A DNA stretch of 64,000 nucleotides from Candidatus Bathyarchaeia archaeon (GCA_049516875.1 JBEKSS010000010.1:32001-96000); one strand, 5' to 3'. Counted from the stretch's first letter, positions 10,620 to 39,795 are shown. The notes: generated from the sequence alone by a model not told the origin. Made by a program: numbers and translations.

Positions 10620-10713
10620 GGGCCCGTAGCTCAGCTAGGTAGAGCGCCAGGCTCATAAGCGCACGAAGCGTTCAGAAACCTGTTGATCCCCGGTTCAAAT
10701 CCGGGCGGGCCCA
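10620..10713 (+). tRNA. tRNA with CAT anticodon, probably tRNA-Ile2 (agmatidine-modified), with a 20-nt intron at 37/38 (10658-10677)
   Basis: GGGCCCG/CGGGCCC acceptor stem, D arm GCTC..GAGC, CT-CAT-A loop interrupted by the intron, T arm CCCGG-TTCAAAT-CCGGG. A GGGCCC acceptor favours Ile2 over Met. TTTAAA box upstream. Confidence 0.92.
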
Positions 10714-13712: not shown

Positions 13713-13843
13713 CAGAACGCCGTTAATATCTAGATTTGAGGTCGATATATATCTGTTTCAGTGCCGCTCTCAGTTTTTGAACAGCGTAGCGTTCGGATAA
13801 TTCTTTTATGCTTCCCAGACAGTCTAGATTTGAGGTGCTCTCA

Positions 13844-15526
13844 TTGACATACGATAAGCAAAAACTGGATGAAATCTCTCAGCGCAAGGAAAAATGGGAA
13901 ACAGAGACAGTTCAAAAAAGCTTTGACAAGCTTCCAGAGAGAGGCGAGTTTTCAACGACCTCTCACATACCTGTAAGTCGAGTTTACTCTCCGATCGACG
14001 TCGCAGACGTCGATTACTTGCGTGACTTGGGGTTTCCAGGAGAGTTTCCATTCACCCGAGGCGTCTATCCAACGATGTACCGAGCGAGACTATGGACCAT
14101 GCGGCAGTATGCAGGCTTCGGCACCGCGGAGCAGACAAATCAACGCTTCAAGTACTTGCTGAGCCATGGGCAAACGGGATTGAGCGTGGCTTTTGATTTT
14201 CCAACGCAGGTTGGCTACGACTGTGACCATCCGATGGCGCTCGGCGAGGTCGGTAAGGTAGGTGTCAGTGCAAGCACGTTACGGGACATGGAAGTCCTGT
14301 TTGACGGAATTCCTCTTGACAAGGTTACTACTTCAATGACCATTAACGCTCCGGCAAACGTTCTACTTGCAATGTACGCTATAGTAGGGCAGAAGCAGGG
14401 GGTTGAGGGAGCCCGGCTCGGGGGGACGGTTCAGAATGACGTTCTAAAAGAATACGTTGCTAGAGGCATGTACATTTTCCCGCCTAAGCCCTCGATGCGT
14501 ATGGTAACAGACATTTTCGAGTACTGCTCCCAGAACATGCCCCAGTGGAACACTATCAGCATAAGCGGGTACCACATTCGGGAGGCAGGTTCCACAGCAG
14601 TTCAGGAAGTCGCATTCACCCTTGCCAACGCCATAGCGTACGTACAGGCCGCCATTGACAAGGGGCTGGATTTAGACAGGTTCGCCGGCAGGCTGTCATT
14701 CTTTTTCGCAGCACACAGCAACTTCCTCGAAGAAATTGCGAAGTTCAGGGCTGCACGTCGCCTATGGGCGCGAATTATGAGGGATCGCTTCGGAGCCAAG
14801 AACCCAAATTCCTGGATGCTGCGGTTCCACACCCAGACTTCAGGTGTATCACTGACGGCCCAACAGCCCCACAACAACATTGTACGCGTCGCGCTACAGG
14901 CGTTATCAGCCGTCCTGGGCGGAACGCAGTCTCTACATACGAACTCTTTTGATGAAGCTTATGCGCTGCCAAGTGAACAAGCAGTCACCGTTGCTCTAAG
15001 AACACAGCAGATAATCGCTCACGAGAGCGACGTGATAGAGACTGCAGATCCACTGGCAGGTTCCTACTACATTGAGTCTTTGACCAATGAGATTGAGGAA
15101 AGAGCTCAGAAATACATTGAACACATCGACGGCATGGGCGGAGCAGTTGCAGCTATCGAGAAAGGATTTATGCAGCGTGAAATCACCGAGAGCGCCTACC
15201 GTTTCCAGAAGGAGGTTGAAACCAAGAAGCGAATCGTGGTAGGTGTGAACGACTTCCTCAGCGAAGAGAAGGTTCCGATGAAACTGTTACAGATTGACCC
15301 AACGATTGAAAAAAGGCTTGTTGAACAATTGAAGCTGGTTAAACAGCGAAGAAACGAAACCAAGACACAGGAAGCCTTACTTAAGCTTCGAGGTGCGACT
15401 GAACAAGAAAATGTGAACCTGATGCCTTTCATACTCGAAGCCGCAAAGGGATATGCAACCTTAGGCGAGATCTGCGGCACTTTGCGTCAGGTTTTTGGTG
15501 AGTACAAACCGCCTTCTATATTTTAG
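13844..15526 (+). CDS. mcmA: Methylmalonyl-CoA mutase, large (substrate-binding) subunit
   Basis: [17 protein letters not shown] (Tyr typical of MCM), [18 protein letters not shown] and [10 protein letters not shown]. No B12-binding domain. GAGGTG SD before TTG 13844. Confidence 0.92.
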
Positions 15527-16077
15527 TTTATTACGAAAAGCGTTTCGCTTTCGTTCACAGGCGTCCCTTCAGCAACGTTTACCTCTTGGACGATTCCTGC
15601 CTTTGGTGCCGAGATTTCGTTCTCCATTTTCATGGCTTCAATCACGCATAAGACTTGACCAGCCTTAACTTGGTCACCCTTCTTCACTTTAACTTGAACA
15701 ATCTTGCCTGTCATAGGCGCGGTCACTGCACCTTCAACAGCGATCTTCCTATTCGTGCCAGTTTTCTTCATTGCCGCTTGTGATGTTGGTTCAAAACCTA
15801 TCAATGCCTGTCTCCTGCTGGCAATCTTCACTTCCACTTCAAACCCGGTGTCTTCAACCTTGACCGGAATCTTTTTTCCTTCGACTTTAGGCAGTTCGAC
15901 CTTGTAGGTTTTGCCATCTATTTCTATGGTAAATGCTTTCTCTGATACGATTCCATTTTCTTGAAGCTTGATTTCCCGAGGTTTGCCGTCTATCTTGGCT
16001 GCGTAAGAGTTCGGGGATGTTCTTGTCAGTTCGATTCTCCGTGGCTTGCCGTCTATGACGGCTTCGTAATCAGGCAT
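15523..16077 (-). CDS. Biotin carboxyl carrier protein (1.3S-like)
   Basis: EAMKMENEI biotinylation motif. Confidence 0.93.
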
Positions 16078-16078
16078 G

Positions 16079-17623
16079 CTAGGCGCCTCTTTCCGTCAGG
16101 TTTTGGCGACCAGCGAGTACCCAAGGCGATATCACGCCTTTGGGCCGCCGTTGTACTAGTGCCTGCAAGCTCGAGTTGCGTGTGGTGAAGGTGGCGATTG
16201 TGGCCGACAGTGCTGCAACTTCTTCAAGCTCGGCAAGCCTTTCAGGCGGGATTGTTGTCTTGATCTCTTCGCGTTTGGCTTTTCTCCTTTTGAAGAATTC
16301 CAATGCTGTTTGCGGAAAGAGTGCATAGGTAATCTTGTCTTCCTCGGTCTCTAAGTAGGGCTTCACATCACCCGGGATCTTGTCTAGTGCAGGCTCCAGC
16401 AGGTCGGCTGGACGGCCCGTTATGGGTTCTTCGTCACCGATGATTTTCTTCTTGACGTGGGGGTCAATCGGTGCTGGAGGTTTTCCATACAGGCCTCGGA
16501 CATAGTCTTTTATTTCTTTTGGGACAATGCCGTAGCGTTTACCTGAAATGACATTTAGAACAGCTTGTATCCCTACAAGCTGGCTGGTCGGCGTTACGAG
16601 CGGCGGATATCCAAGTTCTTTTCTGACTCTAGGCACTTCTTCAAGCACTTCGTTAAGTCTGTCGAGTGCTTTTTGCTCGCGTAGTTGCTCCAGCAAGTTA
16701 GAAAACATTCCGCCAGGAATCTGATGAACGATTATTGATGCATCGACTCGTTCAGCTTTTGGATCGATCAGTCTTAATGGATCGTAGTATTTTTCGCGCA
16801 GTTCTCGGAAATACTGTGCTATTTCGTCCAGAAGTTCATTGTCTAAGCCTGTGTCATACGGGGTTCCCTTAAGCGCTGCCACAACAGACTCAACAGGCGG
16901 CTGGGATGTGCCCCACGCCAGTGGCGAGAAAGCGGTGTCGAGGATGTCTACGCCTGCTTCACATGAGCGCAGGTAGGTCATCATGACCATTCCGCTTGTG
17001 CTGTGGCTGTGCAAGTGCACGGGCAAGCCTACTTCCCTTTTCAAAGCCCTGATAAGGTCGTATGCAGGCTGCGGCGCGAGCATACCGGCCATGTCTTTTA
17101 TGCAGATGGAGTCACAGTCTAACTCAGCCAGTTTTCTCGCGAATTCTACAAAGTGTTCGACAGTGTGGACTGGACTTATTGTGTAACTGATTGTTCCTTG
17201 AACATGTTTACCGACTCTCTTGACTGTTTTAATGGCGACTTCCATGTTTCTAACGTCGTTCAAGGCATCGAATATTCTGAAAATCTCAACACCATTTTCA
17301 GCAGCCTTTTCCACGAACTTTATGACAACATCATCGGGGTAGTTGCGATAACCGACAACATTTTGTCCGCGCAACAGCATTTGTAGAGGTGTTCGTTTGA
17401 CATGCTGTCTCAGCTTTCGTATGCGTTCCCAAGGGTCTTCATTTAGAAAACGTATTGCAACGTCGAAGGTTGCACCTCCCCATGCCTCAAGCGAGAAAAA
17501 GCCGACTTGATCCATTTTTTCAGCTATTGGAAGCATTGTTTCGGTTCGCATTCTCGTGGCTAGCAGGCTTTGATGCGCGTCTCGGAATGTCGTGTCGGTG
17601 ATTTTAACAGGTTTCGAGGCCAA
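16079..17623 (-). CDS. Pyruvate/oxaloacetate carboxyltransferase (PycB / OadA / transcarboxylase 5S-like) with no biotinyl domain
   Basis: DTTFRDAHQSL, WGGATFD, IKDMAG, HLHSH, IPGGM and PPLVTPTSQ. Confidence 0.92.
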   Translation of the reverse strand: MASKPVKITDTTFRDAHQSLLATRMRTETMLPIAEKMDQVGFFSLEAWGGATFDVAIRFLNEDPWERIRKLRQHVKRTPLQMLLRGQNVVGYRNYPDDVVIKFVEKAAENGVEIFRIFDALNDVRNMEVAIKTVKRVGKHVQGTISYTISPVHTVEHFVEFARKLAELDCDSICIKDMAGMLAPQPAYDLIRALKREVGLPVHLHSHSTSGMVMMTYLRSCEAGVDILDTAFSPLAWGTSQPPVESVVAALKGTPYDTGLDNELLDEIAQYFRELREKYYDPLRLIDPKAERVDASIIVHQIPGGMFSNLLEQLREQKALDRLNEVLEEVPRVRKELGYPPLVTPTSQLVGIQAVLNVISGKRYGIVPKEIKDYVRGLYGKPPAPIDPHVKKKIIGDEEPITGRPADLLEPALDKIPGDVKPYLETEEDKITYALFPQTALEFFKRRKAKREEIKTTIPPERLAELEEVAALSATIATFTTRNSSLQALVQRRPKGVISPWVLAGRQNLTERGA

Positions 17624-17687
17624 GCTGATTTGCTTCCTGTCATTGTCTTTATTTTGGATGTGAAAAATGAGTTGAAGCTCTATTAAT

Positions 17688-19256
17688 TTATAATGGTACG
17701 TTTGAGTGTTTTCTGGATGGACGAGATTCGCGTTTTGTAGCTAGACTTTCGAGGGCGCTGATGAGCTTCATTCGGGTTTCCGAGGGTATGATGACCTCGT
17801 CTATGTACCCTTTCTGCGCGGCAATATATGGGCTTGCAAATTTCTGGCGGTACTCACTCACAAGCTCGTTGTGTTTCTGTTGAGGGTCTTTGGCTTCTGC
17901 AATTTCCTTTCTGAAAATTATGTTGATGGCCCCGTGAGGACCCATGACCGCGATTTCGGCTGTCGGCCAAGCATAGTTGATGTCGGCGCCTGAGTGTTTG
18001 CTTCCCATCACGTCATAAGCTCCACCGTAGTCTTTTCTGAGGATAACCGTTATCTTTGGCACTGTGGCTTCACAATAAGCGTACAGAAGTTTGGAGCCGT
18101 GTTTGATTATTCCGCCATGCTCTTGTTCAATACCAGGCAAGAAGCCGGGCACGTCTACGAATGTTATTATTGGGATATTGAAGGCGTCGCAGAAACGGAC
18201 GAACCTGCCTGCTTTCATTGAACTGCTAATGTCTAATGCCCCAGCGTAGTGCGCAGGTTGATTAGCTACTATTCCTATGGCTTTCCTGTTTAGACGCGCG
18301 AAGCCTATCACAATGTTCTGTGCCCACAGAGGTTGAATTTCGAAGAATTCACCGTTGTCTACTACCCGAAAGATGATTTCTTTCACGTCATAAGGTTTGT
18401 CAGGGTCGTCTGGAAGCACCTTGACCAAGCCTTCATCGACGCGGTTCGGATCGTCTCCAGTTTCAACAACAGGAGGATCCTCCAAGTAGTTGCTGGGCAA
18501 GTAGCTTAGAATCTTCTTGATGATTTGGATGCACTGCTGTTCGTCTTTTGCGATGAAGTGGGCAACGCCGCTGGTTTGACTGTGAACCATGGCCCCACCA
18601 AGGTCTTCGAAAGACACTTCTTGCCCTAGCACCGTTCTTACCACGTCTGGGCCTGTGATAAACATGTGGCTTGTCTTATCCACCATGATTATGAAGTCAG
18701 TTAAGGCTGGTGAATAGACAGCCCCCCCGGCACAAGGCCCCATTACGGCAGAAATCTGTGGCACTACCCCTGAGCTTATCACGTTTCTGAAAAAGATGTC
18801 ACCGTACCCTGCGAGGCTTGCCACACCTTCTTGAATCCTAGCTCCGCCAGAGTCGTTCAAGCCTATGACTGGTGCGCCTGTTTTCAAAGCCAAATCCATT
18901 AGTTTGCAGACTTTCTTTGCAAACATCTCGCCCAAAGAACCTCCGAAGACCGTGAAGTCCTGCGAGAAGACATAGACGAGTCTACCGTCTATCGTCCCGT
19001 AGCCTGTTACCACGCCGTCGCCGAGGAATTTTCGGTCGGACATGCCAAATTCTATGCAGTGGTGGACAACAAACTGGTCAATCTCGTTGAAGCTGCCTTG
19101 GTCAAGCAAGAGTTCGATGCGTTCTCTAGCCGATAACTTGCCTTTAGCATGCTGTTCTTCGATTCTTTTCTTTCCACCACCCAGTTTGGCCTGCTCTCTT
19201 AAACCGTCCAACTGTTTGATCTTCTCATCGGCTGAAGGTTCTTTTGTTGCGGTCAT
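17688..19256 (-). CDS. Methylmalonyl-CoA carboxyltransferase (12S / PccB / MmdA family)
   Basis: [30 protein letters not shown] and KHSNVPL. Confidence 0.93.
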
Positions 19257-19470
19257 ACATTATTCCCTCAGTTTTGGCAGTAATATTGTCCTATTAAGTA
19301 TTTAGAACATATGGAGATTCTTGGAAATGCGCCCCAAGCTTTTGCGGAAGACTGATTTAGCCTCCAAATCTGACAGCGCGCGCTCAACAGGAAAGACATA
19401 TGCGTATTGAACACCACTTCTCTTTGGAGACGTGTGCCCTGTCTTGCGTAGAACAGTCACTGCAGATTCG

Positions 19471-20427
19471 ATGACACATCCCACGGGCCCTTCATCACCT
19501 GTCAAGAAAATTGTGGCTATTCTGCTAGTTGCAGTAATTCTTGGTTTTCTTCTGTTGAACGCTCCATCCCCATTGCAGATTTTTCAGAGAATGTTTGGAT
19601 TGCACAGATATCCAACCTACAGCCATGACGAACTGGTGAATTATGCATTGTCCCTCGTCAATTCTGACAGATCCCAAAACGGCCAATCAAACGTAAGCCT
19701 CAGTTCGGTTAGCTCAGGCCAACAGCATGCCGACGACATGCTTGAACACCACTACTTCAGCCATTGGGACGTGAATGGCTACAAACCATACATGAGGTAC
19801 ACGTTGGCCGAAGGAAGAGGCTCCGTGGAAGAAAACATCGCATGGTACCATAGCAGTGGTTCTTTTGATGCAAAAGAAGTGTTGAAAGATTTGGAATGGC
19901 AGATGATGTACAACGACTCTGGATCTAGTAATGGTCACATGTTCAACATTCTGAGCACTTCACACAACAGGGTCAATGTTGGAATAGCCCTCGACAGGAA
20001 CAACCTATACTTGGTCCAAGACTTTGAAAACGACTACGTACAATGGTCGACTTTCAATGTTTCCACAGACAATGAAGTGACAATGATAGGGATGCTGCAA
20101 GGAAAAAGTCTGTCAGTGAAACAGATGAGCATCTTCTACGATAGCCTACCCATAAACCTGACATCCGAGCAACTAGAACAGCCTCCGCACAGTGATGGCT
20201 ATAGCGCGGGCGGCTTTGTAGGCATGGCTCTTCCGGCAGGGTACAGGTCACCCAATGGCGTTACGATTGCAGCACAAACATGGACTCAAACTGGCCAAGC
20301 ACTACAAATACTGTTCGACATTTCTCCAGCTCTCGACGCACACGGCAAAGGCGTCTACACGTTATACCTTCAACCAAGCGCAAGTACATTGGACGCGCTG
20401 ACAAGTTACTCAATTTGGTACACCTAA
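19471..20427 (+). CDS. Membrane-anchored CAP/SCP domain protein
   Basis: N-terminal TM, LVNSDR, QHADDMLEHHYFSHW, ENIA and GHMFNIL. Confidence 0.85.
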   Translation: MTHPTGPSSPVKKIVAILLVAVILGFLLLNAPSPLQIFQRMFGLHRYPTYSHDELVNYALSLVNSDRSQNGQSNVSLSSVSSGQQHADDMLEHHYFSHWDVNGYKPYMRYTLAEGRGSVEENIAWYHSSGSFDAKEVLKDLEWQMMYNDSGSSNGHMFNILSTSHNRVNVGIALDRNNLYLVQDFENDYVQWSTFNVSTDNEVTMIGMLQGKSLSVKQMSIFYDSLPINLTSEQLEQPPHSDGYSAGGFVGMALPAGYRSPNGVTIAAQTWTQTGQALQILFDISPALDAHGKGVYTLYLQPSASTLDALTSYSIWYT

Positions 20428-21221
20428 CACTTCCCGAAGACAAGGTCGCCCACAAGAATTCGTCTTGTTGTTCCGTCTTCAAGCTTGAGAATCAGCGCAC
20501 CTTCAAGATCAACGTTCAACGCCAGACCGTTCAATTCTTCATCTTGATCTGTAACTACTACCTTATGTCCTAGAAACCCTGCGTACCTTTTCCACCTTTC
20601 TAGCAGAGAAGCAAAGCCGCCTCCCACGTACGTGTCGTAGATCCTCTCCATCTTCTCAAGCAACGCCTTAAGCAAGCTTTCCAAACGGATTTTTCTGCCA
20701 AGCTCGTTCTGAATGGAAGTCGCGGTAGTTTTCACCGATTCCGACAAAACGTCCTCCGCACAGAAGTTTGCGTTTATCCCGACGCCCAAGATAGCATAGT
20801 TGACGTTTTCGCATTTCGTGTTCATTTCGGCCAGTATGCCGCAGATCTTCTTGCCGTTCACGAGCACATCGTTAGGCCATTTAGTTTCGGTTCTCATTCC
20901 GTACTTCTCATGCAAGACTTCAGCCACAGCCAAACTGCCCACAAACACCAGCTTCACAGCTTCGTTGGCTTTCTGGTCGGGCCGCAGAACAATTGAAAAC
21001 CATAATCCGCCTCTCGGCGAGATCCACTCTCGCCCAAGTCTTCCTCGTCCAGCCATCTGAGTCTGGGCCACTGTGACTGTCCCCTCTTCTGCACCGATCT
21101 TGGCAAGTTCCTTGGCCCAATCGCTCGTCGAGTTGACTTCGCGACTGAAAAAGACGCGTTTCCCAAAACGTTTAGTGAGTAGACTTTCCTGAAGTCTTTC
21201 TAGGTTTATTTTTGCTGACAC
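20424..21221 (-). CDS. birA: Biotin-protein ligase
   Basis: QMAGRGRLGREWISP, KWPND and KICGIL; likely GTG start at 21221. Confidence 0.93.
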   Translation of the reverse strand: MSAKINLERLQESLLTKRFGKRVFFSREVNSTSDWAKELAKIGAEEGTVTVAQTQMAGRGRLGREWISPRGGLWFSIVLRPDQKANEAVKLVFVGSLAVAEVLHEKYGMRTETKWPNDVLVNGKKICGILAEMNTKCENVNYAILGVGINANFCAEDVLSESVKTTATSIQNELGRKIRLESLLKALLEKMERIYDTYVGGGFASLLERWKRYAGFLGHKVVVTDQDEELNGLALNVDLEGALILKLEDGTTRRILVGDLVFGKC

Positions 21222-21234
21222 GTAGGGCCCGCCA

Positions 21235-21648
21235 TCAGGGTGCTTCACAGAGTTCCAGAAGAACACCCTTGGTGCTTTTCGGATGGACGAAGGCAATTTT
21301 CTTTCCCTGTGCGCCCGCCCTCGGCTTCTCGTCAATCAACGTCAGGCCCTTCTGTTTGAACTTCTCAAGCACCGCTTCAATGTTCTTGACTTTCAACGCT
21401 ATATGGTGAATGCCTTCCCCGCGGCTTGCAAGAAACTTCGCGATGGTGCTTTCATTATCAAGCGGTTCCAAAAGTTCAATGTTTGTCTCGTTGCCGCTTG
21501 AGAAAAACGCTACTCTGAGCTTTCGATCATTCAAAACGTGAACACCCTCAAGCTTTAGACCCAAGACATCACGATAGAAACCGATTGCCTCATCCAGACT
21601 CTTCACCGCAACTCCGATATGATCCAATCCGTTAATCAATGTACTCAC
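21235..21648 (-). CDS. mce: Methylmalonyl-CoA epimerase
   Basis: DHIGVAV, IELLEP, GEGIHHIA and AFVHPKSTKGVLLEL. Confidence 0.92.
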   Translation of the reverse strand: MSTLINGLDHIGVAVKSLDEAIGFYRDVLGLKLEGVHVLNDRKLRVAFFSSGNETNIELLEPLDNESTIAKFLASRGEGIHHIALKVKNIEAVLEKFKQKGLTLIDEKPRAGAQGKKIAFVHPKSTKGVLLELCEAP

Positions 21649-21775
21649 CGGTTTTTTACAGTGACGCCAAAACATGCAGACGTCGGCAAGGATTTAAGCT
21701 TAACTTCTATCTATATTGACATGAAAGGCGGGTGGTAACGTATTCAGTATATTCGGGTTTGACCTGCCCTTTCTA

Positions 21776-22594
21776 ATGGCGTCCATGGTTCTAATTGCAA
21801 TGGGCTGCGTAGCCTTAGCTTTTTCTCTGATCTTGCGGAAAAAATCGCGTGCTCTTCAGAAATTTCCAAAAAGCCCGCAAATCAAAATATTCAAGAAAAC
21901 CTTCAATGTTTTCGACCCGTATTCAGAACAACGGAAGGTTATTCATGAACACCTTCAACTGCTCATTCTACTCGCTATTTACGGATCTTTTATCGGCATT
22001 GGTTTTGCGATATTGGCGATGCTTCAAGTTGGATTCTTGCTGGGCTTCATGGTGTTGATAGTTTGTCTCGGTTTCCTTTTGCTTGACGAGACTCTGGAGG
22101 TTCACAAGAACGCCAACATCTTTTTGAAAGCCTTCAAGAATGAAGTAAGCTTCGGCAAAGGTGATTTGGAAGCACTGGACTTTCTGAGACAGACCTTGCC
22201 AAGACTAAGTCACTACCATCTTTCGGTTGCAATCGCATTCTTTGCAACCTCTCTAGCAGTGCCATCCGTCGTGAACATCTTTGTGCTGGCCTTTGCTCAA
22301 TGGGCAGGCGTGATATTCGCGGCAAGCGCAGCTTTCTGGTTTTTCCCTCCCTTTGTACTTATCTGCACAGGTATCCTGTTTGCTGCCACTGTGTTCGTGG
22401 TGCAGTTTGCGGCCGGCAAGGTTAAGAGAAGGATTTTCAGTTTTCCTTCTCCTCAACCGCTGAACGGAATGAGTGAACAGTTCTATCGTATGAAAATGTT
22501 CGTAGGAATTCAACATCATCATCCAACACTTCACCTACCTGAAGTGGAGCAGAAGAAGACAGATGAAAAAGATGTTGAACAGACCGAAGCTTAA
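21776..22594 (+). CDS. Hypothetical integral membrane protein (about 5 TM)
   Basis: 272-aa ORF with several long hydrophobic segments. Confidence 0.7.
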   Translation: MASMVLIAMGCVALAFSLILRKKSRALQKFPKSPQIKIFKKTFNVFDPYSEQRKVIHEHLQLLILLAIYGSFIGIGFAILAMLQVGFLLGFMVLIVCLGFLLLDETLEVHKNANIFLKAFKNEVSFGKGDLEALDFLRQTLPRLSHYHLSVAIAFFATSLAVPSVVNIFVLAFAQWAGVIFAASAAFWFFPPFVLICTGILFAATVFVVQFAAGKVKRRIFSFPSPQPLNGMSEQFYRMKMFVGIQHHHPTLHLPEVEQKKTDEKDVEQTEA

Positions 22595-22713
22595 CTCATA
22601 CTTCTATGCCAAGTGCTGGAACAGCCTTGGAAATCCTTAGACACACTTGATAGACTGCAAATCGGCTTTCATCGGCAAACACTTTTAAATATTGCTTAAA
22701 ATATCAGTGAGCC

Positions 22714-22989
22714 ATGCCAGACAAGGTTCACTGTGCCCACATCCTCGTGAAATCGGAACAGGAAGCCAAAGCCATCTTGCAACGGTTGAACAAGGGTGAA
22801 AAATTCGCAAACATAGCCAAAGAAGTGTCACTCTGTCCATCTGGAAAGCGCGGTGGAGACCTCGGCACGTTCACAAGAGGAAAAATGGTCAAAGAATTCG
22901 AGACATGCGCCTTCGCGCTTCAGAAAGGACAAGTTTCGCCCATCGTGAAAACAAAATTCGGATATCACATAATAAAAAGACTAGACTGA
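22714..22989 (+). CDS. ppiC: Parvulin-type peptidyl-prolyl isomerase
   Basis: HILVK, SLCPSGKRGGDLG and TKFGYHII. Confidence 0.93.
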   Translation: MPDKVHCAHILVKSEQEAKAILQRLNKGEKFANIAKEVSLCPSGKRGGDLGTFTRGKMVKEFETCAFALQKGQVSPIVKTKFGYHIIKRLD

Positions 22990-23046
22990 ATAGCATCAAC
23001 ATCCCGATTGGCAATATGACTCCCAAAAGGGTGAGAAATCGCAGTT

Positions 23047-23622
23047 TCAACGGGACTTCGCGACGTTTGTGAAATTCCGAAGGATTTCTTCCCCATGCTC
23101 AGTGTTGTTCACTTCAGGGTGAAATTGAACCCCATAATACGGCTTTTCCATATGCTTCACAGCTTGGACACTGCAATTCTCTGATACAGCAAGCACCGCG
23201 AACCCGTTTGCAACCTTCACCTCGTCGTTATGCGACTCCCAAACAAGAAACTCTTTAGGCAACCCCTTGAATAGGTCATCCTCTTCAATGACCGTTATCC
23301 TTGCCAGCCCGTATTCTGGAACCTCAGAAGGCCCAGCCTTTCCACCGCAATACACAGCCATCAGCTGAAGCCCTACACATATGCCCAGAATCGGTCCCTT
23401 GAAATCCTGCAAGTAATCAATACACTTGCCCAGTTTCGGAGACTCCCAAGCGATTCTAGGTGCTCCCCCACTCAAAATCAACGCCTCAGCCTCTATTTCA
23501 TCTACAGGCGTAGTGTTAGCTATGATCTTCGAATCGCAACCGAGTTCCTTCAAGACCCTCCAAATCCTGTGAGTCCATTGGCCACCGTTGTCAACAACGT
23601 GAACTCTGACAGGCCTACTCAT
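23047..23622 (-). CDS. guaAA: GMP synthase glutamine amidotransferase subunit
   Basis: DNGGQWTHRI, GICVGLQ and QFHPEV. Confidence 0.92.
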   Translation of the reverse strand: MSRPVRVHVVDNGGQWTHRIWRVLKELGCDSKIIANTTPVDEIEAEALILSGGAPRIAWESPKLGKCIDYLQDFKGPILGICVGLQLMAVYCGGKAGPSEVPEYGLARITVIEEDDLFKGLPKEFLVWESHNDEVKVANGFAVLAVSENCSVQAVKHMEKPYYGVQFHPEVNNTEHGEEILRNFTNVAKSR

Positions 23623-24568
23623 ACTCAATCGTCCCCGGAGGTTTGTTCGTTACATCAAAAACAACTCTACTTACATCATCCTTCAGAGTATTCGTAATTC
23701 TCACAGATATCCTCTCCAACACCGTATGAGGAATCTTTGAGTACGCAGCGCTCATTCCATCCAGACTCTCAACCGAGCGAACTGCAACGACGTTCCCGTA
23801 GACTCTCACATCACCATGAACCCCGACTGTTTTGCATGGCAGCAACACGGCAAAGTACTGCCATGGTCTGCTCATCTCCTTGTTAGCTACAGCTTTTTCG
23901 ATCTCTTCTTCCACGATTGCGCATGCCTCTCTAACGATTCTCACGTTAATTGGAGTAGCTTCCCCAAGTATCCTCACAGCCAAGCCGGGGCCCGGAAAAG
24001 GCTGACGCTCATAAAGCTCTGAAGGTAGACCCAACTCTTTCCCAACAATTCTCACTTCATCTTTGTACAAATCTCTTAACGGTTCGACAATTTCAAATTC
24101 GATTTTTTCAGGCAGGCCTCCGACATTATGATGAGATTTAATTCTGTCCCTCAAACCGCCCCCGCTTTCTATCCAATCTGGAGCGATTGTTCCTTGAACA
24201 AAAAACTTCGCACTCTCCGTTCTGGCAACTTCCTCAAAAACTCTAATGAACAATTCACCAATGATTTTCCTTTTCTGCTCTGGGTCAACTGCGCCCTGGA
24301 GCTTCTCATAGAATCGTTCCTTGGCATCCACAACGATGACGTTCAAACCGAGTTTTTTCAACATTTTTTCATTGTTCCCTATCTCGTTCTTTCTCATGTA
24401 ACCAGTATCCACCAGAACACAGCGCAAGTTCTCCCCAACGGCTTTGTTCACCAAAATCGCTGCTGCAGTTGAATCAACACCGCCAGAAACGCCTATGACA
24501 GCAACACCCTTTATCCTCTCAGCCAATTCCTTAACCGCCTCATCTATGAACTTTGCAGCATTGAACAT
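23615..24568 (-). CDS. guaAB: GMP synthase ATP pyrophosphatase subunit
   Basis: SGGVDS, IKSHHNVGGL, PFPGPGL and KPPGTIEYE; ATG at 24568. Confidence 0.93.
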   Translation of the reverse strand: MFNAAKFIDEAVKELAERIKGVAVIGVSGGVDSTAAAILVNKAVGENLRCVLVDTGYMRKNEIGNNEKMLKKLGLNVIVVDAKERFYEKLQGAVDPEQKRKIIGELFIRVFEEVARTESAKFFVQGTIAPDWIESGGGLRDRIKSHHNVGGLPEKIEFEIVEPLRDLYKDEVRIVGKELGLPSELYERQPFPGPGLAVRILGEATPINVRIVREACAIVEEEIEKAVANKEMSRPWQYFAVLLPCKTVGVHGDVRVYGNVVAVRSVESLDGMSAAYSKIPHTVLERISVRITNTLKDDVSRVVFDVTNKPPGTIEYE

Positions 24569-24747
24569 GCAGGTACCACACGGTAGGATTGAACAGGGCA
24601 CGTATAAAAGTCTTGTAAACACTTTCAGGAATACACTCAGCCACGACACTAACATCATTATCGAGAAGAAAACTGGAAAAACTATAAAACACAGGTCACA
24701 GACTTACCTAGTCTCCATCAATAATCAAATCAAAACAGGCGAGTCTA

Positions 24748-26448
24748 GTGGAGAAATTGATTCATGACATAATAATCGTCGGCGCCGGCTTAGCCGGCCT
24801 TAGGAGTGCGGTCGCCGCTGCCGAAGTTGACAGCAAACTGGACATAGCCGTCATCTCAAAGCACCATCCTTTACGATCGCACTCTGTTTGTGCACAGGGC
24901 GGAACAGGAGCCGTTATGAACGAAAAAGACTCTTTTGACCTCCATGCCTATGATACCGTGAAGGGCGCGGATTTCCTCGCAGACCAAGACGTTGTGGAAT
25001 TCTTCGCCAGAGGGGCACCGAAAGAAATAGTCCTCACAGAACACTGGGGATGTCCGTGGAGCAGAACGGCTGACGGAAAAATAGATCAAAGAGCATTCGG
25101 CGGGCACACTTTTCCAAGAGCATGCTTTGCAGCAGACATGACAGGCTTTCATGAAATGCACGCCGTCTACGGAAAAGCGACATCTTATCATAACATAAAA
25201 TTCTACGACGAATGGTTCGTCACCTCCCTTGTCGTAGAAAACGCAACAGCCATAGGCCTTACGGCTTTGGAAATGAGGACGGGCCGAATGTACGCGCTCC
25301 AAGCTAAATCAATTGTGATGGCAACTGGAGGACACGAACGCATCTACGAGTTCACCACGTTTTCGCACACAACAACAGGCGACGGCATGGCAATGGCCTA
25401 CCGCGCAGGTGCACCGCTGGAGGACATGGAGTTCGTCCAGTTCCACCCAACAGGCATGGTCCCCTCAGGCGTACTGATAACGGAAGGGGCAAGAGGAGAA
25501 GGAGGCTACCTAATCAACGCCAACGGCGAACGCTTCATGAAAAAATACGCACCTGAAAAAATGGAACTAGCTCCACGAGACGTGGTTTCACGTGCAGAAC
25601 AAACAGAAATACTGAAAGGAAGGGGCTTGCAGGGACCCTACGGACCTTACATAGCTATAGACCTAAGACACCTAGGAGAAGAGAAAATAAACCTAAGGCT
25701 ACCGCTCATCAGAGACGTCGCGATAAAACTCGGCGGAGTAGACCCCGTCAAAGAACCGATACCGATCAGGCCAGCGGCTCACTACTCGATGGGAGGAATC
25801 AAGGCCAACATAAAAACCGAGACACCGATTTCAGGCTTATACGCCTCAGGAGAATGCTCATGCCTAAGCCTACACGGAGCAAACAGACTGGGCACAAACT
25901 CCACAGCAGAATGTCTAGTTTTCGGCGCAGTCTCAGGCGAACAAGCTGCCAAGCACGCGTTATCAACAGGCTTGCATGAACCCCCACAGGGAAAATTGGC
26001 TGCAGAAGAAAAGCGGGTCTTCGACCAGACATTGGGAAGCGAAGGCACCGAAAGGGTCCCGGACATCAGAGATGAAATGAGACGCATAATGAACGAGAAG
26101 GCATGGATATACAGAAGAGGAGACCAGCTTGAAAGCGGCCTGAAGGAAATCAGACAGCTTAAGCAAAGGTTCAAAAAGATAAGAGTCCAAGACAAAGGAC
26201 GACCATTCAACACTGGAATGTTAAACGCACTGCAACTTAATTTCATGCTGGATCTTGCCGAAGTCACCATGGTCGGTGCTCTGCCGCGTAATGAATCACG
26301 CGGAGCACATTCAAGAACCGACTATCCAAAACGCGATGACCAGAACTGGCTGAAACACACACTCGCCTACTACACGAAAGACGGACCGAGACTCGAGTAC
26401 ATTCCAGTCACGATAACCAGATGGCCTCCTGTGGCCAGAACCTACTAG
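24748..26448 (+). CDS. Succinate dehydrogenase / fumarate reductase flavoprotein (TfrA/FrdA-like)
   Basis: GAGLAG, RSHSVCAQGG, QFHPTG, ELAPRD, HYSMGG, HGANRLG and ESRGAH. Confidence 0.93.
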   Translation: MEKLIHDIIIVGAGLAGLRSAVAAAEVDSKLDIAVISKHHPLRSHSVCAQGGTGAVMNEKDSFDLHAYDTVKGADFLADQDVVEFFARGAPKEIVLTEHWGCPWSRTADGKIDQRAFGGHTFPRACFAADMTGFHEMHAVYGKATSYHNIKFYDEWFVTSLVVENATAIGLTALEMRTGRMYALQAKSIVMATGGHERIYEFTTFSHTTTGDGMAMAYRAGAPLEDMEFVQFHPTGMVPSGVLITEGARGEGGYLINANGERFMKKYAPEKMELAPRDVVSRAEQTEILKGRGLQGPYGPYIAIDLRHLGEEKINLRLPLIRDVAIKLGGVDPVKEPIPIRPAAHYSMGGIKANIKTETPISGLYASGECSCLSLHGANRLGTNSTAECLVFGAVSGEQAAKHALSTGLHEPPQGKLAAEEKRVFDQTLGSEGTERVPDIRDEMRRIMNEKAWIYRRGDQLESGLKEIRQLKQRFKKIRVQDKGRPFNTGMLNALQLNFMLDLAEVTMVGALPRNESRGAHSRTDYPKRDDQNWLKHTLAYYTKDGPRLEYIPVTITRWPPVARTY

Positions 26449-26462
26449 AAAGATGAAGTAAC

Positions 26463-28028
26463 ATGAGCACCAAAGTAGAGAAAACGGTTGAATTCAACAT
26501 AAGCCGATTTGAACCAGAACAGAAAAGACACTACGTATCAACATTCAAAGTCCCCATTCACCAAGGAACAACTCTCCTTGACGCCCTGCTTTATATCAAA
26601 GATCACTTTGACGATTCACTCACGTTTAGACAGTCATGCAGGATGGGCATCTGCGGAGACTGTGCAATCAACGTTAACGGCAAGCCGATGCTAGCCTGCT
26701 ACACGCAGGTGCTCGACCTCGGCGCAGACTCTCTGACCGTTGAACCGCTCTCAAATTCTCCTGTGATAAAAGACCTTGTTGTCGACATGCAACCGTTCTT
26801 CGAAACTTACAAGAGGATCAAACCGATCCTGATTAAGCCTGAAGAAGAATTCAAGAAACCTGATGAATTCTCTCAAAGTCCCGAGGATCTTAAAAAATAC
26901 TGGGACCTGACACTATGTATCAAATGCTCCATTTGCAACTCAGCCTGTCCAGCAGTCATAGACGAGAAATTCCTCGGACCCTCAGCGTTAACGGCTACTT
27001 ACAGATTCCTCACAGATTCAAGGGATCAAGGCTTGGATCAACGGTTGAAACCAATGGCCGACAACATCTGGCTCTGCACCCAATGCAACTCGTGCACGAT
27101 GTTCTGCCCCAAAAAACTAACCTGCGCAAACGCCATAGTTGACGATCACAGCCTCCTAGTCGAAGCCGGAGACATTCCAAGAACCGTCAAAGACGTGCTT
27201 GAAAGCGTATACAAATACCACAACCCCATGGGAACAACGCAGGCCAAAAGGATGGAATGGGCAAAAGATCTGAACGTTAAAACCTTTCCAACAACCACAA
27301 AAGCCGATGTCCTGTTTTTCACCTGCTGCTCAAATGTTTACGACCTGAGAAACCAAGAAGCAGCAAGAACCATGGCCTCAATATTCAATCACATGCAGGT
27401 CTCCTTTGCGACACTGGGCACTGAAGAATGGTGCTGCGGAGACCACATGCTAAGACTCGGCGAAAAAGGATTGTTCGAAGAACTCGCCGAACACAACATC
27501 TCAATGTTCAAGAAATTCAACCCAAAGAAAATCGTAACGTTATCACCACACTGTTACAACACGTTCAAGAATGACAAGCCTTACAGCGACGCTGGCCTGA
27601 ACGTCCAACACTACACCCAATTCCTCGCCGAGGCCCTTGAAAAAGGAAGCATCAAACTCTCGAAGCCCATAAGGAAAAGAATCGTCTACCATGACCCCTG
27701 CTTCCTAGGCAAACGCAACGATGTATTTGACGCACCACGACAGATCTTGCAGTCAATAAAAGGCGTAGAACTTATCGAAATGAGAAGGACAAAACAGAGC
27801 AGCTTCTGCTGCGGCGGAGGCGCTGGAAGGGTGTGGACAGAAGACGCGTTGCCTGAAAAGAGACCCAGCACAAACCGACTTCAAGAGGCACTCAGCCTCA
27901 ACGCTGACACTGTAGCTGTGGCCTGCCCATACTGCGTCACCACCTTAGAAGATGCGGTAAAAGTGCTAGACGTAGAAAACAAGATTTCGGTAAAGGACAT
28001 TCTGGAGCTCATTAAAGAAGCACTGTAA
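26463..28028 (+). CDS. Fumarate reductase Fe-S subunit fused to two CCG (HdrD/HdrB-like) domains, TfrB-like
   Basis: 2Fe-2S motif CRMGICGDC, 4Fe-4S motifs CIKCSICNSAC and CTQCNSCTMFC, then WCCG, HDPC, CCGGG and CPYC. Confidence 0.88.
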   Translation: MSTKVEKTVEFNISRFEPEQKRHYVSTFKVPIHQGTTLLDALLYIKDHFDDSLTFRQSCRMGICGDCAINVNGKPMLACYTQVLDLGADSLTVEPLSNSPVIKDLVVDMQPFFETYKRIKPILIKPEEEFKKPDEFSQSPEDLKKYWDLTLCIKCSICNSACPAVIDEKFLGPSALTATYRFLTDSRDQGLDQRLKPMADNIWLCTQCNSCTMFCPKKLTCANAIVDDHSLLVEAGDIPRTVKDVLESVYKYHNPMGTTQAKRMEWAKDLNVKTFPTTTKADVLFFTCCSNVYDLRNQEAARTMASIFNHMQVSFATLGTEEWCCGDHMLRLGEKGLFEELAEHNISMFKKFNPKKIVTLSPHCYNTFKNDKPYSDAGLNVQHYTQFLAEALEKGSIKLSKPIRKRIVYHDPCFLGKRNDVFDAPRQILQSIKGVELIEMRRTKQSSFCCGGGAGRVWTEDALPEKRPSTNRLQEALSLNADTVAVACPYCVTTLEDAVKVLDVENKISVKDILELIKEAL

Positions 28029-31951: not shown

Positions 31952-32449
31952 CTATCGCGGAAGCAGTTCAAGCAATGTCTGGACGATTTCCTTCTCAGAC
32001 GCTTGAACACTGGGGGTCAGACCCTCTCCAAAATCACTTTTTTCAGGTTCCACCAATAACAGGGCGATTTTTGCTTGCGTCGTCTCCGTAACATGCTCAC
32101 AGAATATCCGCAGTGGAAGCATGTGTGTCGAAAAAACAGGAGACATTGTTAATCGTTTAGGTTCAACAAGCTTGAAACTGCCAGGCTTCAAACCTAGAAG
32201 TGCAGCGTCTATCAGAAGGACATGCGTTGGACTGAAATCTATGATTTGTGGCATGAAATCTTCAGGAACCGTTTCGCATTCCATAAGGCAGACCTTTTCA
32301 GAAACCCTTCCCTGCAAATCTTGGACTACTCTGACTCCAACATAGTCGTCCATGCGAATGGGATTTCCAACACCAGCAAGAGCGACTCTTTCCGCCTTTG
32401 AAAACCATCTCTCAAGCTGTTTTTGTGCACTGGACTTTCTTGCAACCAC
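31952..32449 (-). CDS. hycI: Hydrogenase maturation protease (HycI-like)
   Basis: GVGNPIRMDDYVG, ETVPE, IDAA and STHMLPL. Confidence 0.9.
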   Translation of the reverse strand: MVARKSSAQKQLERWFSKAERVALAGVGNPIRMDDYVGVRVVQDLQGRVSEKVCLMECETVPEDFMPQIIDFSPTHVLLIDAALLGLKPGSFKLVEPKRLTMSPVFSTHMLPLRIFCEHVTETTQAKIALLLVEPEKSDFGEGLTPSVQASEKEIVQTLLELLPR

Positions 32450-32488
32450 TGGAAATCTCCATTAGAGTATTACAGAAAGAAATAGGGC

Positions 32489-33943
32489 TTATCTCTGAAC
32501 TTTTCTTAAAACTTTTCTGTCTGCATCGTAGATTTCTACAGTTAAAGGCATTTGTCCCACAGCGTAATGCGTGGCGCACCCGAAGCACGGGTCGTAAGCC
32601 CTGAAAGCCATTTCAACCATGTTAAGCAAGCCCTGATTCACTTTCCCGTCATGTATCAGACCTTTTGCCGCATCACGGATGGACATGCAGATCGCAGGAT
32701 AGTTGTTGGTTGTCGCCACAATCAGGTTAACATCCTTGATAAGCGCGTCCTTGTCCAGCACGTAGTGGTGATAAAGCGTGCCTCTTGCTGCCTCGACCAC
32801 TCCCACGCCCTCGCCTGGCTCGCCCGGCTTGTTCCGCACGTCCGTGCTGGTTATCTCTGGATCTCTGACAAGCTCAAGCGCTCGTTCAGTGGCGTAAAGC
32901 AGCTCTATCAGCCTTGCCCAGTGGAAAGCCAAAGTTCCATGCACTGGTTTTCCGCCCAGAGTCTTGTACATTACCTCATACTCTTCCTGTGCAAGCGGCG
33001 TTGCCATGCCGTCCGAAGCGTTGAGTCTTCCAAGCGGACCGACACGGTAGACTCCGCTGTCCGGGCCGTAGACTTGGCCTTTCCAGCCTACCTTCTTCAA
33101 GAACGGGAACTTTGAGTAGGTCCACTCTTCCACGTGCTCGCCGATATAGGTCAGGTAGTCTTTGGGTTCAAACTTCAGGAATTCGCCGCCGCTGGGATAG
33201 ACAACTCTGATTTTGCCGTCGTAAAAGTTGACCTTGTTGTGTTCATCAACCAGACCCATGTAGTAGGTGTTCATCGTGTACGCGTCGCTCTTGATCATGT
33301 CAACGTACTTCGGGTTTCCAAGAACAATGTCATGGAATATCTTCAGGGTGAGCTTTGCGAACTCCAAGGACGACGCTGCCATCTTCTCGATTTCCTGCCT
33401 GTTCTCTTCGCTCAACGGCTTCGAGATGCCGCCGGGCAACCCGCACACTGGATGCGTCGCTTTTCCGCCCAGAATCTCAGTTATCTTTTGTCCGTAGGCT
33501 CGGTGCTTAATGACTTCTTTGGCTACGTCCATTCCGACTTTTTCAATGACTCCTAGAATGTTCCTTTTCTCAGGCGGAGCGTCGGGCCCAACGATGAAGT
33601 CCGGTCCACCCAGATAGTAGAAGTGCAGTGTGTGGTCATAGATAATGTATCCAGCGTACATGAGTTCTCTGAGCTTCTTGGCGGCTGATGGAGGTTCAAC
33701 GTTGAACGCCGCGTCCAAGGCTTTCGTTGCCGCAAAATGGTGAGCGACTGGGCAGACTCCGCAGATTCTGGTCGTCAGAATCGGCATGAGTTCAGCCCTT
33801 CTGCCGACGCAGAACTTCTCGAACCCCCTGAGTTCAGGTATCTTGAGATAGGCGTTTTCAACTTCGCCCTCGTTGTTCAGGAATATCGAAACGTTTCCAT
33901 GGCCTTCCAGTCTTGTTATTGGATCTATCACTATTTCCTTCAT
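32489..33943 (-). CDS. mvhA: [NiFe] hydrogenase large subunit, group 3c
   Basis: ITRLEGHG, L1 RICGVC, L2 DPCFGCATH plus a cleavable C-terminal tail; hdr/mvh context. Confidence 0.93.
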
Positions 33944-35811: not shown

Positions 35812-35812
35812 T

Positions 35813-36337: not shown

Positions 36338-36774
36338 TAGGCTTCAGCTTCCATAGCTTTCACCGGGCTTGGACCAAGCTTCTTCAAGTCTTCCACCATG
36401 CTTCTGACCACGGCTGCCCATTTGTCTCCTTCACTTGCCGAGATCCATTCTAACCGTAAACGCTCAGGTTCAATTCCGAAGTCTTTCAAGACTCTCTTCA
36501 ACAGGTTTATTCTTCTCATGGCCTTGAAGTTCCCGCTGATGTAGTGACAGTCTGATGGTAAGTGGCAACCTGCGACGAGCACGCCGTCCGCGCCGTCTTT
36601 GAATGCTTCTAACACGAACGCGGGGTCTATTCTGCCGCTGCACATCACACGTATGATTCTGATGTTTGGAGGATACTGAATTCTGCTTACGCCTGCCAGG
36701 TCTGCGCCTGCGTAGGCGCACCAGTTGCATAGAAAACCGATTATTTTCGGTTCAAACCCGTTGTTCTTGTTCAT
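36337..36774 (-). CDS. mvhD: Hydrogenase/Hdr [2Fe-2S] delta subunit
   Basis: [31 protein letters not shown] and WISASEG; ATG 36774 overlaps the hdrA stop. Confidence 0.93.
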
Positions 36775-39794: not shown

Positions 39795-39795
39795 T

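Follow-up and report, generated by a model that had tools for sequence, protein, structure and literature searches.

The methylmalonyl-CoA:pyruvate transcarboxylase of Propionibacterium, which consists of a 12S, a 5S, and a 1.3S subunit, is an ATP-independent enzyme that has been characterised in bacteria. Its 1.3S subunit has a short N-terminal peptide, a flexible linker, and a biotinyl domain. Here, we describe a cluster of archaeal genes that probably encodes an enzyme of the same kind. The cluster lies in a stretch of 64,000 nucleotides from a Candidatus Bathyarchaeia archaeon (GCA_049516875.1, JBEKSS010000010.1:32001-96000). We refer to this stretch as the window, and positions are counted from its first nucleotide. 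The window is bases 32001-96000 of contig C10 in a source genome of 2,430,117 bases, 20 contigs, and 97.46% completeness. A first-pass annotation of the window, made from the sequence alone, had proposed an archaeal transcarboxylase that takes part in propionate metabolism by the methylmalonyl-CoA route.

The transcarboxylase of Propionibacterium freudenreichii subsp. shermanii (EC 2.1.3.1) resembles the set in the window in having two carboxyltransferases of the same two folds, a small biotinyl protein, and no biotin carboxylase (BC), and its pathway context also includes a mutase, an epimerase, and fumarate reduction. The differences are that the carrier in the window has 184 amino acids and a predicted eight-stranded BT-like barrel instead of a short N-terminal peptide; that the 5S-like subunit has a docking tail of the BC type and is nearer in sequence to PycB and OadA; that the genome has a succinyl-CoA synthetase; that the reductase is of the CCG type without an anchor; and that the host is an archaeon. 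The CoA-transferase of propionibacteria is also of another class than the candidate in the source genome.

Propionyl-CoA carboxylase (PCC), an alpha6beta6 enzyme (3n6r and 7ybu), is similar in other respects, and so is the split PccA (BC plus BT-BCCP) of other Bathyarchaeia. The 12S-type subunit is a homologue of PccB, and the carrier is predicted to have the build of BT-BCCP. With the split PccA of its relatives, the window also shares its gene order and a homologous tail, which is on the 5S-type subunit in the window and on BC in the relatives. However, the source genome has no BC domain, so the enzyme would be unable to use ATP and bicarbonate, and the proposed alpha-like unit would have a pyruvate carboxyltransferase in that position.

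Among solved structures, the best match to the 5S-type subunit is the two-subunit pyruvate carboxylase of Methylobacillus flagellatus (5ks8; Choi et al. 2016, PMC5059739). According to passages of that paper, its BT-like domain forms in trans: BC contributes an Ala-rich C-terminal helix, two beta subunits contribute the strands around it, and the holoenzyme is lost when the helix is deleted. In the window's enzyme, by contrast, the carboxyltransferase would supply the helix, a separate carrier would supply the entire barrel, and there is no BC.

An archaeal transcarboxylase is not a first. Imachi et al. (2020, PMC7015854) had used the same three types of gene to infer propionate metabolism in Asgard archaea. 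The Asgard sets are from another phylum, and their subunit architecture is absent from the passages of that paper. What the Bathyarchaeia add is relatives that still carry BC, which makes its loss visible. The reductase in the window resembles TfrAB of Methanothermobacter in having two subunits, a flavoprotein and an SdhB-like protein fused to two CCG domains, and no anchor gene. It differs in that it misses the TfrAB cut-offs and that its host is no known methanogen, so that the thiols of coenzymes M and B (CoM-SH and CoB-SH) are doubtful donors.

In the literature that we searched, whose coverage leaves out most subscription journals, we found no description of this cluster in Bathyarchaeia, and the passages available showed no BT-type carrier in a transcarboxylase. 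The passages of four other papers (PMC7565565, PMC13248872, PMC8164749, and PMC11212195) had no bearing on Bathyarchaeia.

Results

Two carboxyltransferases and a biotin carrier

We scanned the open reading frames (ORFs) at 10-32 kb of the window against Pfam and NCBIfam. Three neighboring genes on the minus strand encode the putative transcarboxylase: a biotin carrier (15523..16077, 184 amino acids) with an EAMKME motif (PF00364, 80 bits); a 5S-type pyruvate/oxaloacetate carboxyltransferase (16079..17623, 514 amino acids) with PF00682 (HMGL-like) and PF02436 (PYC_OADA) but no fused biotin domain; and a 12S-type acyl-CoA (methylmalonyl- or propionyl-CoA) carboxyltransferase (17688..19256, 522 amino acids; PF01039, Carboxyl_trans, 671 bits). 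The acyl-CoA carboxyltransferase, pyruvate carboxyltransferase, and biotin carrier genes are co-oriented, as the first-pass annotation had described them. In genome-wide profile searches, the source genome had exactly one Carboxyl_trans gene and one PYC_OADA gene, both in the window.

Against the Protein Data Bank (PDB), the 12S-type subunit matched 1vrg_A best (733 bits); solved PccB chains scored 703-733 bits and the Propionibacterium 12S subunit (1on3_A) scored 599 bits over residues 10-521. Its score for TIGR01117 (mmdA) was 859 bits, under the NCBIfam cut-off of 999. The 5S-type subunit matched PycB (5ks8_C, 549 bits), OadA (2nx9_A, 505 bits), and Propionibacterium 5S (1rqb_A, 468 bits). 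It scored above the cut-offs for NF006761 (791 bits, cut-off 402) and for the NCBIfam OadA equivalog (728 bits, cut-off 718). Its stretches TDTTFRDAHQS, CIKDMAGM, and HLHSHSTSG are conserved relative to 1rqb, 5ks8, and 2nx9, and they align with the metal and carbamyl-lysine sites of the solved enzymes. We also considered 2-oxoglutarate as the substrate of the 5S-type subunit (as in CfiA), but PycB and OadA match best among the curated families, so we dropped this idea. Of the 12S plus 5S plus 1.3S composition that had been proposed, the two carboxyltransferases stand, as neither contains a BC or BCCP domain and the active-site stretches are intact. The 1.3S-type carrier does not, since the carrier has a predicted BT-like barrel.

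Biotin carboxylase and decarboxylase beta subunits

The first-pass annotation had seen no BC and no membrane beta subunit in the window, and this is true of the entire source genome. There were no matches to Biotin_carb_C and none to OAD_beta (PF03977, the family of OadB and MmdB). CPSase_L_D2 had just two matches, at 20-22 bits, one of which falls in the gene for succinyl-CoA synthetase beta, and using a relative's BC as the tblastn query gave nothing at E ≤ 1e-3. (With no strong match to CPSase_L_D2, no large chain of carbamoyl-phosphate synthetase was detected in this genome either.)

A gap in the assembly might explain these absences, so we searched the five whole genomes that carry the closest loci (L018, L019, L021, L022, and L025). 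One of these, L022, is a single-chromosome record of 2,172,046 bases. BC was found in none of the five and OAD_beta in none of the five. Thus, the searches for a true partner encoded elsewhere, whether BC or OadB/MmdB, were negative in the source genome and in all five relatives. We also looked for remnants of BC or BT-BCCP between the mce and reductase genes in the window and in L018, L019, L020, and L027, and found only chance matches (E ≥ 3). Overall, the source genome has the gene content expected with a transcarboxylase, that is, no BC and no decarboxylase beta subunit, and it lacks the BC domain that defines PCC and the OAD_beta that defines a Na+-pumping decarboxylase.

Probable loss of biotin carboxylase in the window's clade

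We searched 101 genomes, sampled evenly from the class, for BC, PYC_OADA, and OAD_beta. BC (as Biotin_carb_C) was present in 14 genomes, PYC_OADA in 12, and OAD_beta in 21 (20 of them over the cut-off). Among the 12 genomes with PYC_OADA, seven have an adjoining OadB (G005, G017, G023, G029, G053, G074, and G097), three have BC (G008, G062, and G077), and two have neither (the source genome, G000, and G072). The cluster in G077 reads TfrB-TfrA, then BC, BT/BCCP (194 amino acids), MCE, BirA, 12S, 5S, and BCCP (184 amino acids), then methylmalonyl-CoA mutase (MCM). Judging from its genes, this is a complete split PCC plus a 5S/carrier pair. In G008, which is from the same family as the window, the BC (L011:14175-15481) is in two overlapping frames (119 and 297 amino acids) at a contig end, and the biotinyl profile is matched only in part by its BT-BCCP. 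The BC module may be decaying in this genome, or the sequence may contain an error.

We then scanned a species-representative genome collection, which gave 80 loci, and mapped the genes with tblastn. The core of 12S-5S-carrier followed by MCM is kept throughout Bathyarchaeia. In a FastTree phylogeny of 80 proteins of the 5S-like type, the rows from Bathyarchaeia group into a single clade (51 rows, support 99), and at 14 of these 51 loci the cluster includes both BC and BT-BCCP. The 5S-like proteins that are linked to OadB branch separately. None of the 18 loci in the window's subclade (support 98) has BC, and the neighbors of this subclade, L040 and L023, do have it. Many loci are short, which makes the lack of BC in a locus weak evidence in some cases; six of the 18 subclade members were searched as whole genomes.

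Because more distant Bathyarchaeia keep BC and a second carrier in the same cluster, we place the window in a clade that lost BC. The tree is unrooted, and loss is the more economical reading but is not proven; we prefer it to a gain of BC because the BC-bearing loci are spread over deep branches. In the window's clade, BC and its own BT-BCCP are missing together, and the second carrier is retained.

Selection on the retained genes

If the 5S/carrier pair had depended on BC, then it should have decayed after BC was lost. We compared the window with L018 and L019 by the Nei-Gojobori method (synonymous sites are saturated against more distant members). The ratio of nonsynonymous to synonymous substitution rates (dN/dS) was 0.040 and 0.030 for 5S, 0.045 and 0.043 for 12S, and 0.149 and 0.154 for the carrier, respectively. 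All three genes are under strong purifying selection in the clade without BC, which argues for a BC-independent job of the pair. To our knowledge, transcarboxylation is the only job for two carboxyltransferases that share one biotin that requires neither BC nor a beta subunit. This argues for methylmalonyl-CoA:pyruvate transcarboxylation as the probable function. The case is built on composition, on the loss of the alternatives, and on selection, and not on orthology.

A BT-like carrier and a tail shared with biotin carboxylase

In the AlphaFold2 (AF2) model of the carrier (mean predicted local distance difference test, pLDDT, of 77.7), residues 3-85 contain eight strands, residues 87-113 are a disordered linker, and residues 114-184 make up the biotinyl domain. 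A Foldseek search with the whole carrier gave a full-length match to the BT plus BCCP part of the PCC alpha subunit (8xl3_A, E = 2.7e-12), and VIA aligned residues 1-184 of the model to residues 558-728 of human PCCA. The biotinyl domain matched the domain of 1.3S (1dd2) with Z = 13.4. The template modeling (TM) scores of the whole carrier were low (0.38-0.40) because its two domains sit on a flexible linker, so we folded and searched the N-terminal domain alone (pLDDT 72.7). Nearly all of its matches were BT domains. The best was human PCCA (7ybu_A), with a TM score of 0.73 and a root-mean-square deviation of 2.4 Å over 86 columns, at an E value of only 1.2e-3. Next were the BT domains of ACC and MCC, along with a few designed beta-barrels at TM scores near 0.35. 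The Pfam family PCC_BT gave sub-threshold matches in 17 of 32 carrier orthologues (best E = 3.1e-4; E = 0.023 for the carrier in the window). These models indicate that the carrier is a BT-like barrel joined to a BCCP domain, and the barrel has no central helix. We rejected the idea that the carrier is a homologue of 1.3S, as its N-terminal part is this eight-stranded barrel of about 85 residues.

A helix that could fill the barrel is present at the end of the 5S-type subunit. The 57 residues past the catalytic domain (about residues 458-514, 16082..16252 on the minus strand) form an Ala-rich helix followed by SPWVLAGR, and this tail is conserved in 32 orthologues. The BC subunits of the relatives end in a similar pattern, with SLWKLAGR. 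When we aligned profiles of the two tails with hhalign, the probability was 98.7% (E = 2.1e-16, 57 columns, 35% identity). By this comparison, the C-terminal tails of the 5S-type subunit and of the relatives' BC are homologous, so the enzyme looks as if it were built on a PCC scaffold.

We also predicted the complex of 5S residues 440-514 with carrier residues 1-95, using alignments that we made ourselves. The score was 0.55, against 0.01 for the best of three controls. The mark for passing is reached by 58 of 80 solved complexes and by 2 of 110 mismatched pairs; at scores of up to 0.60, it is reached by only seven of those 80 complexes and by both of the mismatched pairs that pass. The runs agreed in at least 85% of contacts, with partner pLDDT of at least 66. 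The prediction weakly supports the pairing of tail and carrier, and because similar domains have been solved, the predictor may in part be reproducing known structures.

The same type of tail is found on 12S-adjacent 5S-like proteins of Chloroflexota, two bacteria, and a Methanomassiliicoccus. Other 5S-like proteins end in a beta-hairpin of the type E-V-E-I-x-G-x-K-Y. These are from an Archaeoglobaceae record and three other archaea (L096, L091, L079, and L080), and the OadB-linked 5S-like proteins of other Bathyarchaeia (L016 and L093) have this end as well. The hairpin ends suggest a second mode of docking.

Genes of the methylmalonyl-CoA pathway

The order of genes in the window is MCM, then carrier-5S-12S, then BirA-MCE, and then a TfrAB-type fumarate reductase. 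MCM, birA, and mce flank the carboxyltransferases, as had been claimed, with the MCM being of the Tyr type. The catalytic (large) subunit of MCM (13808..15526, plus strand) has 572 amino acids and no B12 domain (PF01642, 763 bits; TIGR00641, 805 bits). This gene and the carrier gene are convergent, with a 4-base overlap between the ends of their ORFs. In the motifs GVYPTMY and VARGMY, Tyr and Arg occupy the two specificity positions, which we take to be those that separate MCMs from isobutyryl-CoA-type mutases. The only small B12-binding subunit in the source genome is on contig C6, with MeaB and an adenosyltransferase, so the mutase in the window must borrow it. C6 also encodes a second acyl-CoA mutase large subunit (C6:25407-27089, which is L114:4407-6089, minus strand; 560 amino acids) that has His and Gln in place of Tyr and Arg and adjoins (L114:2482-4394) the small B12-binding subunit, MeaB, and the adenosyltransferase. 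From these residues, the paralogue is probably not an MCM.

On the other side of the cluster are biotin-protein ligase BirA (20424..21335, minus strand; TIGR00121, 204 bits, cut-off 83) and methylmalonyl-CoA epimerase (mce, 21235..21675, minus strand; TIGR03081, 166 bits, cut-off 115). The five minus-strand genes of the biotin and mutase pathway are co-oriented, with one interruption, which is an unrelated plus-strand ORF with a CAP domain (cysteine-rich secretory protein family, 19432..20427) between 12S and BirA. In the relatives, BirA adjoins 12S, and in some of them about 1.5 kb is inserted between 12S and 5S instead. The BirA ORF overlaps mce by about 100 bases; the relatives' BirA proteins have 258-265 amino acids, and the tblastn match of a relative's BirA covers 20445-21221, so the true start is probably near 21221.

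The other steps of the pathway are encoded elsewhere in the source genome. The first-pass annotation had named the MCM small subunit, fumarase, malate dehydrogenase, and a CoA-transferase as genes to look for, and every one of them has a candidate. Besides the small subunit on C6, there are class I fumarase alpha and beta subunits on C16, a malate dehydrogenase on C2 (397 bits, cut-off 283), and a class I CoA-transferase pair, as well as succinyl-CoA synthetase alpha and beta subunits on C1. Two other CoA-transferase families were absent from the four genomes searched (AcetylCoA_hyd_C 0/4; CoA_transf_3 0/4). The source genome also has an L-lactate dehydrogenase (C14), a malic enzyme, seven POR_N matches, and pieces of an ADP-forming acyl-CoA synthetase. 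Three ATP-grasp_5 fragments at C1:311849-312389, split by TGA, TAG, and TAA, are a broken copy of the beta subunit of such a synthetase. A complete one is in the window (43222-46023, minus strand), as a fusion of 933 amino acids with CoA_binding_2, Succ_CoA_lig, Ligase_CoA_2, and ATP-grasp_5 domains plus a C-terminal GNAT domain; similar long forms are in all of the family members that we sampled. Overall, propionate metabolism by the methylmalonyl-CoA route in this archaeon is supported at the level of genes, and none of the checks refuted it.

Fumarate reductase and the direction of flux

The fumarate reductase lies about 3 kb beyond the cluster, as noted before (the gap from mce to the flavoprotein is 3,072 bases). 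It comprises a TfrA-like fumarate reductase/succinate dehydrogenase flavoprotein (24748..26448, plus strand; PF00890 and PF02910; NF004724, 869 bits, cut-off 826) and a TfrB-like iron-sulfur subunit (26463..28028, plus strand) whose SdhB-type N-terminal half (Fer2_3 and Fer4_8) is fused to two CCG (HdrB-like) domains. No membrane-anchor gene is beside them; the next genes encode an aldehyde:ferredoxin oxidoreductase and a 4Fe-4S protein. A flavoprotein, an SdhB-CCG fusion, and no anchor gene is the domain arrangement of TfrAB, from which we infer that the reductase would be soluble and thiol-dependent. The scores for the NCBIfam equivalogs are below their cut-offs (TfrA, 487 versus 718 bits; TfrB, 319 versus 385 bits).

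TfrAB adjoins the biotin cluster in 12 loci from Bathyarchaeia and in one other archaeal locus (L091) among 87 that we fetched, many of which are too short to show adjacency. In terms of gene order, this synteny ties fumarate reduction to the methylmalonyl-CoA genes. The Tfr of Methanothermobacter, which is of the CCG type and has no anchor, is established to reduce fumarate. Because the reductase in the window is also of the anchor-less CCG type, the reductive, propionate-forming direction is favored, and by analogy it is the most likely one.

A cluster of the Mvh/Hdr type (31952-42276, minus strand) begins 4 kb downstream of the reductase. It encodes a hydrogenase maturation protease, NiFe hydrogenase large and small subunits, an HdrB-like protein (two CCG domains), an HdrC-like protein, an HdrA-like protein of 1021 amino acids, MvhD, and a GltD/NfnB-like protein of 572 amino acids, and it is followed by a GcvH-like gene (42405-42995). 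A link between this cluster and the CCG-type reductase is speculation.

Other features and environmental distribution

An Rfam scan of the whole window found just one tRNA and no riboswitch near the cluster. The tRNA match (10620-10713, plus strand) spans 94 bases for a model of 71 positions, and there is probably an intron inside it. An ORF of 1146 amino acids (59772-63212, plus strand) has no Pfam match at E ≤ 1e-5.

DNA near-identical to 15523-19256 (at least half of the sampled words) is present in 20 listed metagenome runs from 18 studies. The habitats are peat, wetland, and freshwater sediment, and four of the runs may be the source of the assembly. None of the listed sequencing runs that hold the stretch is an RNA run.

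Discussion

A proposed ATP-free methylmalonyl-CoA cycle

We propose that the 12S-type subunit transfers a carboxyl group from (S)-methylmalonyl-CoA to the biotin of the 184-residue carrier, and that the 5S-type subunit then passes it from biotin to pyruvate. This would yield propionyl-CoA and oxaloacetate without ATP; the reverse is equally possible. The Ala-rich helix of the 5S tail would plug the helix-less BT barrel of the carrier. The resulting alpha-like unit would have a pyruvate carboxyltransferase where PccA has BC, and it would dock on the 12S hexamer via the hook of the tail. Malate dehydrogenase, class I fumarase, the TfrAB-type reductase, succinyl-CoA synthetase, the mutase (with the B12 subunit from C6 and MeaB), and the epimerase would close the cycle. 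In this way, pyruvate would be converted to propionyl-CoA and then, through the ADP-forming acyl-CoA synthetase, to propionate plus ATP. The pathway might serve as an electron sink for a peat archaeon that ferments peptides or pyruvate.

It is quite probable that the 12S, the 5S, and the carrier form a transcarboxylase. For the full statement, with a transcarboxylase, a methylmalonyl-CoA cycle, and the reductive direction, we estimate a probability of roughly 0.55.

Several observations weigh against this proposal. By sequence, the 12S-type subunit is not told apart from PccB or MmdA. The 5S-type subunit resembles PycB and OadA more closely than it does Propionibacterium 5S, and its score for the NCBIfam 5S equivalog (563 bits) is under the cut-off of 827. 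In relatives, the cluster includes BC, which shows that the same two carboxyltransferases can serve ATP-dependent carboxylases, and the function in the window has to be argued from loss. The predicted complex of tail and carrier is a weak pass. The missed Tfr cut-offs weaken the case for the reductive direction, and oxidation of propionyl-CoA would be compatible with the data. Also, with both a succinyl-CoA synthetase and an ADP-forming synthetase, the reductive branch is ATP-neutral, so its only benefit would be redox balance unless fumarate reduction is coupled to something. Finally, the estimated contamination of the source genome is 5.38%.

Alternative explanations

The same transcarboxylase could run in reverse, which we view as a lesser but serious possibility. 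Propionyl-CoA (from propionate, from Val, Ile, Met, or Thr, or from odd-chain breakdown) would take the carboxyl group of oxaloacetate and would then be oxidized or assimilated via methylmalonyl-CoA, succinyl-CoA, and succinate, with ATP made at succinyl-CoA synthetase. The transcarboxylase reaction is freely reversible, as established for the Propionibacterium enzyme, and syntrophic propionate oxidizers run the pathway in the oxidative direction. The same cluster in the relatives carries a full PCC, which works in that direction; seven 2-oxoacid:ferredoxin oxidoreductase alpha-type genes suggest breakdown of amino acids to propionyl-CoA; and succinyl-CoA synthetase is present, rather than a CoA-transferase alone. 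The Mvh/Hdr-type cluster near the reductase would also fit, as would the occurrence of the DNA in metagenomes from peat and wetland, where propionate turns over. However, there is no known driving force for the oxidation of succinate by an anchor-less reductase of the CCG type, and the known propionate oxidizers use membrane-bound, quinone-linked enzymes. By analogy only, passages of Imachi et al. (PMC7015854) state that every Asgard archaeon lacks part of the set needed for syntrophic degradation.

Or, the enzyme might be mainly anaplerotic, as the sole route from pyruvate to oxaloacetate. Methylmalonyl-CoA derived from succinyl-CoA (for example, from glutamate via 2-oxoglutarate) would pay for the carboxylation, and propionyl-CoA would be a by-product that yields ATP. 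In the 97.5% complete source genome, we found no pyruvate carboxylase, no GTP- or ATP-dependent phosphoenolpyruvate (PEP) carboxykinase, and no archaeal PEP carboxylase, while bacterial-type PEP carboxylase (PF00311) had no search of its own. The 2-oxoacid oxidoreductases are plentiful, and an aspartate-ammonia ligase is 2.7 kb from the reductase genes. But a malic enzyme is present, and a peptide fermenter can draw oxaloacetate from aspartate. The tight synteny with fumarate reductase also fits a cycle better than a one-way drain, and we consider the anaplerotic explanation unlikely.

It is very unlikely that the 12S and 5S are halves of ATP-dependent propionyl-CoA and pyruvate carboxylases whose BC is merely missing from the assembly. 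BC is in or near the cluster in G077, G008, G062, and 14 of the 51 Bathyarchaeia loci, and an assembly of 20 contigs with 2.5% of markers missing could have lost a gene. But BC is absent from six of six subclade genomes, including the single-chromosome record; the site of the relatives' BC is mid-contig in the window, where it holds other genes and no remnant; and BC is gone together with its own BT-BCCP, with the second carrier kept.

Least probable of all are biotin-dependent decarboxylases of methylmalonyl-CoA and/or oxaloacetate, either Na+-pumping or soluble: although the closest proteins carry the source name "oxaloacetate decarboxylase subunit alpha," the scores for the OadA equivalog (728 bits, cut-off 718) and mmdA (859 bits) are high, and OadB adjoins the PYC_OADA gene in 7 of 12 genomes of the class, there is no OAD_beta in the source genome or the five relatives, we know of no decarboxylation of carboxybiotin by enzymes that lack a beta subunit, and the OadB-linked 5S-like proteins are on their own branch with a different C-terminal hairpin.

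A possible shared plug-and-socket system

A broader scenario is tentative, and it may well be wrong. The Bathyarchaeia and, judging by the tails, some Chloroflexota and Methanomassiliicoccus would share a plug-and-socket system, in which a module with an Ala-rich helix and a hook of the W-x-L-A-G-R type is captured by the helix-less BT barrel of a carrier. The captured module could be BC or a pyruvate carboxyltransferase, each with its own carrier, and each would hang from one 12S hexamer. In relatives with both modules, a single particle would then be PCC, pyruvate carboxylase, and transcarboxylase at once, and the window's clade would have stripped it to an ATP-free form. A bolder step would have the CCG-type reductase hand a disulfide to the Mvh/Hdr complex that is encoded 4 kb away. 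If this is true, then fumarate reduction would power flavin-based electron bifurcation, and energy would be conserved in the propionate branch with no need of a reductase in the membrane.

Implications

The putative enzyme appears to belong to a known kind but to differ in its carrier and assembly, and in this lineage its genes seem to be mislabelled. Because public annotations call these proteins "oxaloacetate decarboxylase alpha" or subunits of carboxylases, metabolic reconstructions may miss an ATP-free methylmalonyl-CoA cycle. The clade that lost BC amounts to a natural deletion experiment, which indicates a separate function for the 5S/carrier pair. The homologous tails suggest that a transcarboxylase can arise from a propionyl-CoA carboxylase by the swap of one module.

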